48,363 nucleotides of DNA. Source: an uncultured Gammaproteobacteria bacterium. GTDB taxonomy: Bacteria > Patescibacteriota > Patescibacteriia > Patescibacteriales > UBA12465. Position 1 is the stretch's first letter, and each line of letters starts with the position of its first letter. Below the pieces are notes generated by a model that saw nothing but the letters and a program-made list of their open reading frames with translations, made no database searches and was not told the origin of the DNA. Position numbers and translations under genes: made by a program. The stretch is from assembly GCA_964536885.1 (NCBI GenBank), contig CAZHYP010000001.1:1-48363 (forward strand), in the 5' to 3' direction. This document shows, in pieces, positions 6,270-6,405 of the stretch.

Positions 6270-6298
6270 TTGATTTGGTAGAAAATAAATGATATTAT
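6270..6298 (+). promoter_or_regulatory. Sigma70-type promoter with extended -10
   Basis: TTGATT (6270-6275), 17-nt spacer, TGaTATTAT (-10 at 6293-6298). There is no plus-strand ORF downstream. Confidence 0.6.
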
Positions 6299-6303
6299 AA
6301 CTA

Positions 6304-6405
6304 TGTGCTTGTGAGCGAAGGCTCCTTTCGGCCGAATCCCAAAAGGATTATAAGCCGAAGAACAGGCATAATAAAAACACCCTTTTTAAACAAAGGGTGT
6401 TTTTA
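6304..6405 (+). ncRNA. Candidate small RNA of about 100 nt, unknown family
   Basis: Bracketed by the promoter above and a hairpin/U-run terminator. P1 (6304-6312 with 6362-6370) has 9 bp. P2 is gagc-GAAG-gctc. P3 (6326-6332 with 6354-6360) encloses aatcc-caaaa-ggatt. Confidence 0.45.
6374..6405. terminator. Bidirectional intrinsic terminator
   Basis: aaaaacacccttt/aaagggtgttttt hairpin with A-run and T-run flanks. It serves the minus gene 6406..6867 and the plus-strand sRNA candidate. Confidence 0.75.

Follow-up and report, generated by a model that had tools for sequence, protein, structure and literature searches.

What is transcribed from the short unit, bounded by a putative promoter and a putative terminator, that lies at positions 6270 to 6410 of the stretch of DNA analyzed here (48,363 nucleotides, referred to below as the window)? 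The window comes from a 787-kb genome of about 36% GC that belongs to the Patescibacteria, a group with very few characterized non-coding RNAs and a large share of proteins without known function. A preliminary description, made from the sequence of the window, had proposed a free-standing small RNA (sRNA) of about 100 nt on the plus strand, where it saw no open reading frame, and had been unable to match the RNA to signal recognition particle RNA, 6S RNA, tmRNA, or a known riboswitch.

The signals in the preliminary description were borne out. The sigma-70-type promoter that it read as TTGATT-N17-TG-n-TATTAT is present in the sequence with a 17-nt spacer and an extended -10 element, is also listed by a promoter scan (9 of 12 matches, TG present), and is kept at homologous loci; transcription is predicted to start near G6305. 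The minimum free energy (MFE) fold of 6300-6410 (-46 kcal/mol, z = -8.7; 0 of 200 shuffled sequences were equally stable) was exactly the proposed three-way junction of P1, P2, and P3 with its AAUCC-CAAAA-GGAUU helix (P3b), followed by the terminator. Compensatory changes were found in the homologues. The strong hairpin and U-run taken for a terminator were recovered as an 18-bp hairpin plus U-run, which recur with the same spacing in homologues. The inverted repeat (I2) is 100% complementary and is flanked by an A-run and a T-run, so that the terminator is predicted to be bidirectional. The reverse strand of the locus folds nearly as stably, because the terminator is a perfect palindrome between these two runs. 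The stop codon of a convergent protein gene (6406-6408) falls within the stem. The absence of an open reading frame on the plus strand was not confirmed: a 46-codon GTG frame (6305-6445, +) overlaps the sRNA, as does a 30-codon frame on the minus strand. We judge both short frames to be non-coding, since homologous RNAs vary between 56 and 75 nt in length and their indels are not multiples of three. The features of the locus are collected in Table 1.

Table 1. Predicted features at and around the sRNA locus, in window coordinates
Feature	Position	Strand	Evidence
Bacterial RNase P RNA, class A	1265-1626	-	Full length, 230.6 bits, Rfam
Cassette extent (sRNA gene, protein gene, and its 5' leader), absent from congeners	6266-7011		Alignments with G003, G001, and G009
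sRNA promoter (-35 TTGATT, 6270-6275; TG, 6290-6291; TATTAT, 6293-6298)	6270-6298	+	Sequence, promoter scan
sRNA three-way-junction core	6304-6370	+	Fold, covariance-model match, covariation in alignments A2, A4, and A6
P1 (9 bp including G-U pairs)	6304-6312/6362-6370	+	Fold
P2 (loop GAAG)	6313-6316/6321-6324	+	Fold
P3	6326-6332/6354-6360	+	Fold
P3b, distal (loop CAAAA)	6335-6339/6345-6349	+	Fold
Shared bidirectional intrinsic terminator (18-bp stem, A-run and T-run flanks)	6368-6409	Both	Fold, inverted repeat
Partner gene (153-aa basic protein, putative divergent stand-alone LPD3-family member)	6406-6867	-	ORF list, profile search, fold match
Candidate partner-gene promoter block (ATGAAA, 18-nt spacer, TG-TATGAT at 7053-7024)	7012-7058	-	Promoter scan; aligns with G003

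BLAST identified a homologue of the sRNA in two congeners, where it again lies between a promoter and a terminator of its own, and the first covariance model was built from these two sequences and that of the window. Covariance models matched 37 of the 148 genomes in this GTDB family, representing 7 of 16 genera, and also Brevundimonas sp. BR2-1. The RNA was found at all 80 loci that had been chosen via the neighboring protein alone. These loci came from Falkowbacteria, Magasanikbacteria, Komeilibacteria, Nomurabacteria, Liptonbacteria, Kaiserbacteria, Uhrbacteria, Jorgensenbacteria, and other Patescibacteria and from one Brevundimonas isolate. The RNA was likewise present beside each more distant protein relative examined. 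Next to one of these, P0324, which reaches the LPD3 threshold, it scored 45.3 bits, occupied the same position, and showed compensatory changes in P1 and P2. The core in the window was matched by covariance models at 95.5 and 80.3 bits.

The preliminary description had looked to aligned relatives for compensatory changes in the helices, and these were found. In the 80-sequence alignment (A4), 90.7% of cells are paired and 14 of 25 base pairs show double changes; when a third subtype and the distant relative are added, these figures rise to 92.3% and 20 of 25. The covariation score of the extended alignment is 0.40, compared with 0.21 for shuffled alignments and at most 0.12 for slid registers. 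About 10% of the paired cells in the 80-sequence alignment are G-U pairs, which would be A-C mismatches on the other strand, and the fold therefore belongs to the strand of the promoter. A promoter scoring at least 8 of 12 lies at the equivalent place in 78 of the 80 loci, and in 72 of them the -10 box ends 4 to 6 nt ahead of model position 1. Transcription would then begin at the G of the first covarying pair in P1. Terminators passed a strict rule in 73 of the 80 loci and were seen by eye in the other 7. The A-rich tail of the sRNA, itself conserved, also supplies the U-tract for the transcript from the other strand. The apex of P3, which is short or absent in one of the subtypes described below (subtype B), is the sole variable segment of the RNA. 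On these comparative grounds we assign the predicted sRNA to a conserved RNA family.

The failure to place the RNA in a known class was upheld. At the gathering threshold, Rfam 15 gave nothing at the sRNA locus, and RNase P RNA was its sole match in the window. Relaxing the threshold to E values of up to 10 yielded, at the sRNA locus, only subthreshold matches that rest on the terminator hairpin, and an Rfam search of six homologous loci produced no matches. ARAGORN found no tRNA or tmRNA gene over 5900-7400; the RNA has three helices only, with no T-arm, and both classes were rejected. A housekeeping RNA does not fit with presence in only about 25% of family genomes. The bacterial signal recognition particle (SRP) RNA was rejected on this same distribution and on the lack of any SRP model match in the genome. 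A riboswitch or other cis-regulatory leader is ruled out because no gene lies downstream on the same strand: the terminator follows immediately, and in all 80 loci the gene beyond it is encoded on the other strand. The analysis supports the prediction that 6270-6410 encodes a structured non-coding RNA of about 100 nt that is a transcription unit of its own and belongs to no known family.

The SRP searches gave a result of their own, in that the SRP pathway was entirely undetected in the host genome (G000) and in 20 relatives of its order. The small SRP RNA (RF00169) was found in 0 of these 21 genomes, and the large SRP RNA (RF01854) was absent from the search of G000. The M domain of Ffh (PF02978) was likewise found in 0 of 21 genomes of the order, and the SRP54-type GTPase domain of Ffh and FtsY (PF00448) was above the cutoff in 0 of 21, with weak P-loop matches only. 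The sample includes one single-contig genome and one 100%-complete genome, and the same searches were positive in 12 to 14 of 14 model genomes. The absence may represent either real loss or extreme divergence.

The RNA has its own promoter and terminator on the plus strand, but it is not free-standing: it has a fixed partner, the convergent 153-aa gene on the minus strand. A convergent gene of 150 to 160 aa was found right after the terminator at nearly every RNA locus. The two lie on opposite strands in 80 of 80 loci, and the distance from the stop codon to the 3' end of the RNA core is 22 to 44 nt in 79 of them; the odd locus has an apparently truncated protein gene and a spacing of 110 nt. 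No other neighboring gene recurs around the RNA-protein pair. Judged from this genomic context, the RNA gene and the convergent 153-aa gene together make up a fixed two-gene cassette.

Comparison of the cassettes revealed that at least three RNA subtypes covary with three protein subtypes. Subtype A RNAs, which have a GNRA-like P2 loop and a long P3, accompany A-type proteins, and subtype B RNAs, which have a GUCA loop and a short P3, accompany B-type proteins; two apparent exceptions are artefacts of a crude classifier. In the family to which the window belongs, subtype C RNA was found in the same position beside four proteins that are distant paralogues. Its P1 is wholly re-paired (GAUAUUUGU/ACAAAUAUC versus GUGCUUGU/GCAGGCAC). 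C pairs can coexist with A pairs in one genome and can even be adjacent to them; G056 and G114 are genomes in which different cognate pairs occur together. We also observed in alignment A4 that GNRA-like P2 loops (GCAA, GAAA, GUAA, and GAGA) are almost confined to RNAs with P3b and that RNAs lacking P3b carry the GUCA loop; this co-occurrence hints at a tertiary tetraloop-helix interaction that links P2 with P3b.

The two halves of the cassette are lost asymmetrically. The RNA was beside all 85 intact protein genes examined outside the window. Among loci selected by the RNA, 21 of 31 copies had an intact protein gene and 10 did not: five of these had no trace of the gene, two had short remnants, two had frameshifted or truncated genes, and one was an orphan A-type RNA adjoining a B-type pair. 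The orphan RNA genes retain their promoter and terminator, and the orphan RNAs score 50 to 74 bits, compared with 53 to 82 bits for partnered homologues.

The partner protein is basic and hydrophilic (pI 9.9, GRAVY -0.69). A Pfam search with the protein of the window revealed nothing, even at E values of up to 10, and searches against NCBIfam, PADLOC, and PHROGs also gave nothing and matched no known toxin, antitoxin, or defense model. A profile search placed 1,229 clusters (at 50% identity) in its family. Of 87 sampled relatives, 21 match the Pfam family PF18798 (LPD3), and no other family recurs; one of the 21, P0324, is above the gathering score, with 34.7 bits against a cutoff of 27. The AlphaFold model of the partner protein (pLDDT 84.6, pTM 0.78) was compared with BFVD models of viral proteins, and the best fold match was a phage protein annotated as LPD3 (probability 1.0, TM-score 0.54, E = 0.011). 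No PDB entry was found with a sequence profile of the protein, and nothing significant was found in the PDB by fold (Foldseek; best E = 0.2). The tRNase complexes of CDI systems were considered as fold relatives and were not counted, their similarity being too weak (TM-score 0.30 to 0.35, E of about 0.9). His44 and Arg54 do not vary across the broad family, and Tyr20, Pro29, Gly41, Gln59, Gln80, Phe129, Ser131, and Pro134 are nearly invariant. The chain of sequence relatives, together with the similarity of the modeled fold, places the partner family in LPD3, with the member in the window falling below the Pfam threshold. LPD3 is a domain of the "polyvalent" proteins of phages and conjugative elements, which take part in genetic conflicts, and no function or RNA partner has been described for it (PMC5512222). 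At several B-type loci (L114, L117, L135, L137, L140, and others), a -10-like hexamer (TAATAT, TATACT, or TAAACT) ends about 7 nt ahead of the ATG of the protein gene. The position of this hexamer suggests that the mRNAs of the protein genes at these loci are leaderless.

Comparison with congeners indicates that the pair is an accessory insert. Alignment with G003, the nearest of them (73% nucleotide identity), covers 5003-6265 of the window and resumes at about 7013, and in two others (G001 and G009) the cassette site holds only a short spacer. The promoter block at 7012-7058 forms the right border of the cassette and is common to G003 (L146 2965-3008). In G003, the slot holds an unrelated 96-aa open reading frame (L146 2656-2946, minus strand) with no Pfam match that lies behind this shared promoter block, and this suggests a promoter-equipped hot spot that takes different small cargo genes. 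The pair thus appears to be a horizontally moving insert that close relatives lack.

Within the window, a search for flanking direct repeats or target duplications gave only AT-rich matches of 71 to 80% identity. One of these (6091-6125 versus 7011-7045, 74% identity) brackets the cassette and could be due to chance. Adjoining the right border, a block of perfect or near-perfect palindromes (7057-7217) comprises TTAACCCCCTCGAATTCGAGGGGGTTAA at 7060-7087, 7084-7111, and two TGCATTTTTTGCA hairpins at 7148 and 7188. G003 is without this block, its promoter block running directly into the terminator of the upstream gene, and the block looks like a second small insertion, possibly MITE-like. On the left, a minus-strand hairpin with a T-run (6235-6208, within 6205-6250) lies in the spacer upstream of a 307-aa gene, in sequence that aligns with G003 and G001. 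This hairpin may have been a terminator or a leader structure before the cassette arrived.

Elsewhere the cassette is patchily distributed, sometimes with several copies per genome. Among 151 genomes of its family, the Brevundimonas isolate, an alphaproteobacterium, alone carries the cassette, and its copy is surrounded by genes for HTH regulators and nucleases and by phage-like genes. In this genome of 63% GC, the protein gene has the composition of the host and the RNA sequence is extremely conserved. No relatives were found in IMG/VR, GenBank phage records, or PLSDB plasmids. Many B-type cassettes adjoin tRNA-Ser genes or degraded tRNA 3' ends. Degraded 3' ends of tRNA-Ser(GGA) (GTTCGAAYC...CTCTCCGCA) lie about 250 nt upstream of B-type RNA genes (L043, L004, L045, L044, and L056), a GGACGATGTTAGAACC-like core lies 85 to 100 nt upstream of the protein gene at other loci (L114, L115, L120, L122, L140, and others), and att-like GTTAGAACC cores occur at cassette borders alongside the tRNA-Ser fragments. 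The tRNA-Ser fragments and the recurring core look like scars of recombinase attachment sites, in which case the cassette would be cargo of integrase-driven islands. The attachment-like core GTTMGAAYC of many B-type cassettes is absent from the window.

The strict linkage and the co-diversified cognate subtypes point to direct and specific recognition between the RNA and the protein, and the asymmetric loss would be expected of a protein that can be tolerated only when the RNA is present. On these three grounds we favor, with somewhat less than even confidence, a reading in which the LPD3-like protein is bound and restrained by its cognate RNA, the pair forming a type III-like toxin-antitoxin, addiction, or abortive-infection module. 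In such a module, an RNA of about 100 nt would be transcribed from its own sigma-70 promoter, starting at the first pair of P1, would fold into a tight three-way junction, and would end at the intrinsic terminator. From the genomic pattern we infer direct binding, neutralization, and toxicity: the RNA would contact the cognate protein via the sequence-conserved junction and P2 region and keep it inactive, and the protein would be harmful upon loss or degradation of the RNA. The basic character of the protein, its invariant His44 and Arg54, and its kinship with LPD3 conflict proteins fit such a role. The protein may be a metal-independent RNase; this is a guess from residue types, since no solved structure matches it. 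It is possible, though we hold this a little less firmly, that the pair represents an unrecognized class of RNA-protein toxin-antitoxin or anti-phage system, widespread in Patescibacteria, with a single-copy, convergent, structured RNA antitoxin and a toxin of new fold.

The same observations can be read in other ways. Rather than inhibiting the LPD3-like protein, the RNA may be a cofactor (a structural, guide, or activating subunit) on which the protein depends for its action, for example in anti-defense, RNA processing, or movement of the cassette. We regard this as unlikely, yet as a serious contender, since strict linkage, covarying subtypes, and a basic protein would all be found in a ribonucleoprotein, as would the extreme conservation of the RNA even in Brevundimonas, where the protein gene has become host-like. 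Wide retention and very high conservation in the streamlined genomes of Patescibacteria could equally mean a beneficial ribonucleoprotein. A pure cofactor would be expected to decay along with its protein, however, and the persistence of orphan RNAs counts against it: about one third of the RNA genes outlast the protein gene with promoter and terminator intact, and the reverse was never seen. A guide in particular would need a variable segment, and just the P3 apex varies. The orphans bear differently on a reading in which the RNA has a function of its own, such as a decoy or regulator of host or phage factors, with the protein as an accessory chaperone, stabilizer, or maturation factor. An RNA of this kind could outlive the protein, and the intact signals, near-normal scores, and high sequence conservation of the orphans are in keeping with it; the asymmetric loss would also arise if the RNA were useful alone and the protein merely depended on it. 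We nevertheless find this reading improbable. Complementarity to the partner mRNA does not exceed chance, and no clear candidate for a single-stranded seed is apparent. The junction is tightly folded, and its role as U-tract in the terminator of the other strand accounts for the A-rich tail. The patchy distribution (about 25% of family genomes) also speaks against it, and diversified cognate pairs within one genome point instead to pair-specific recognition.

The layout of the locus raises the question of whether the RNA acts as a cis-antisense RNA, as in the type I system par(pAD1), with the transcripts pairing via the shared terminator and the RNA repressing translation or stability of the mRNA. 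Convergent promoters, a shared bidirectional terminator, and complementary 3' stem-loops are found in the RNA I/RNA II (Fst) pair of par(pAD1) (PMC7472228), and the two 3' ends here would be complementary over about 35 nt. The resemblance ends there, and we rate an antisense mechanism as less probable again. Fst-type toxins are small hydrophobic membrane peptides of about 33 aa, whereas the partner here is a hydrophilic, basic protein of 153 aa. In par, the two RNAs additionally base-pair through direct repeats located over the translation start, and no such complementarity was found here: the mean longest match to the 5' region of the mRNA was 6.28 nt, compared with 6.29 nt for shuffled sequences (72 loci), and RNAduplex z-scores were around 0 relative to shuffles. 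The conserved part of the RNA is a structured core, a covarying three-way junction that lies outside the terminator overlap, and par-like pairing therefore cannot explain the conservation of the junction. Least probable of all, in our estimate very much so, is that the structure acts at the DNA level, as a folded single-stranded recombination site like integron attC, or that it is a known RNA class that was missed. The mobility of the cassette would agree with such an element, and the SRP RNA that is undetectable in this genome and its 20 relatives could in principle be the missed class. Against this, a positioned promoter and terminator surround the structure in nearly all loci, no known family emerged at any threshold, and ARAGORN gave neither a tRNA nor a tmRNA. 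A missed housekeeping RNA would not be confined to a quarter of family genomes, a missed SRP RNA would have no partner, since Ffh and FtsY are also undetected, and a riboswitch would have no gene to control downstream on its strand.

The favored reading, in which the RNA neutralizes its protein, brings the pair closest, in its proposed mode of action, to the type III toxin-antitoxin systems ToxIN, CptIN, and TenpIN. The pair shares with them a structured RNA with its own terminator and one small protein, diversified cognate pairs, residence on mobile or accessory DNA, and the proposed logic, by which the RNA would bind and neutralize the protein directly. [quoted passage not shown] In contrast, the RNA described here is present as a single copy, folds into a three-way junction, has a promoter of its own, and is convergent with the protein gene; no tandem repeat array of the type III kind was found at the sRNA locus. 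The protein is also different, being LPD3-like rather than a ToxN/AbiQ, CptN, or TenpN protein, consistent with the negative database searches (PADLOC, Pfam, NCBIfam, and PHROGs). With LPD3 (PF18798) itself, the partner family is continuous, since its members grade into that domain, and both occur in settings of genetic conflict or in mobile elements. Unlike the LPD3 domains of giant proteins, the partners are stand-alone proteins of about 155 aa. Neither Rfam 15 nor the literature searched yielded an account of this RNA or of an RNA that partners LPD3.

These findings tie one of the most sequence-conserved small RNAs of the Patescibacteria to a large orphan protein family, related to LPD3 and comprising the clusters counted above, and give both the RNA and the protein a testable function. 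Direct tests in laboratory strains are easy, because one copy is in a Brevundimonas isolate that can be cultivated and because the parts are small. If the RNA neutralizes the protein, the pair would represent a new architecture for RNA-controlled toxin, addiction, or defense modules. It would also provide, if this is true, a first clue to what the LPD3 domain does in phage polyvalent proteins, namely that it recognizes or cleaves RNA.
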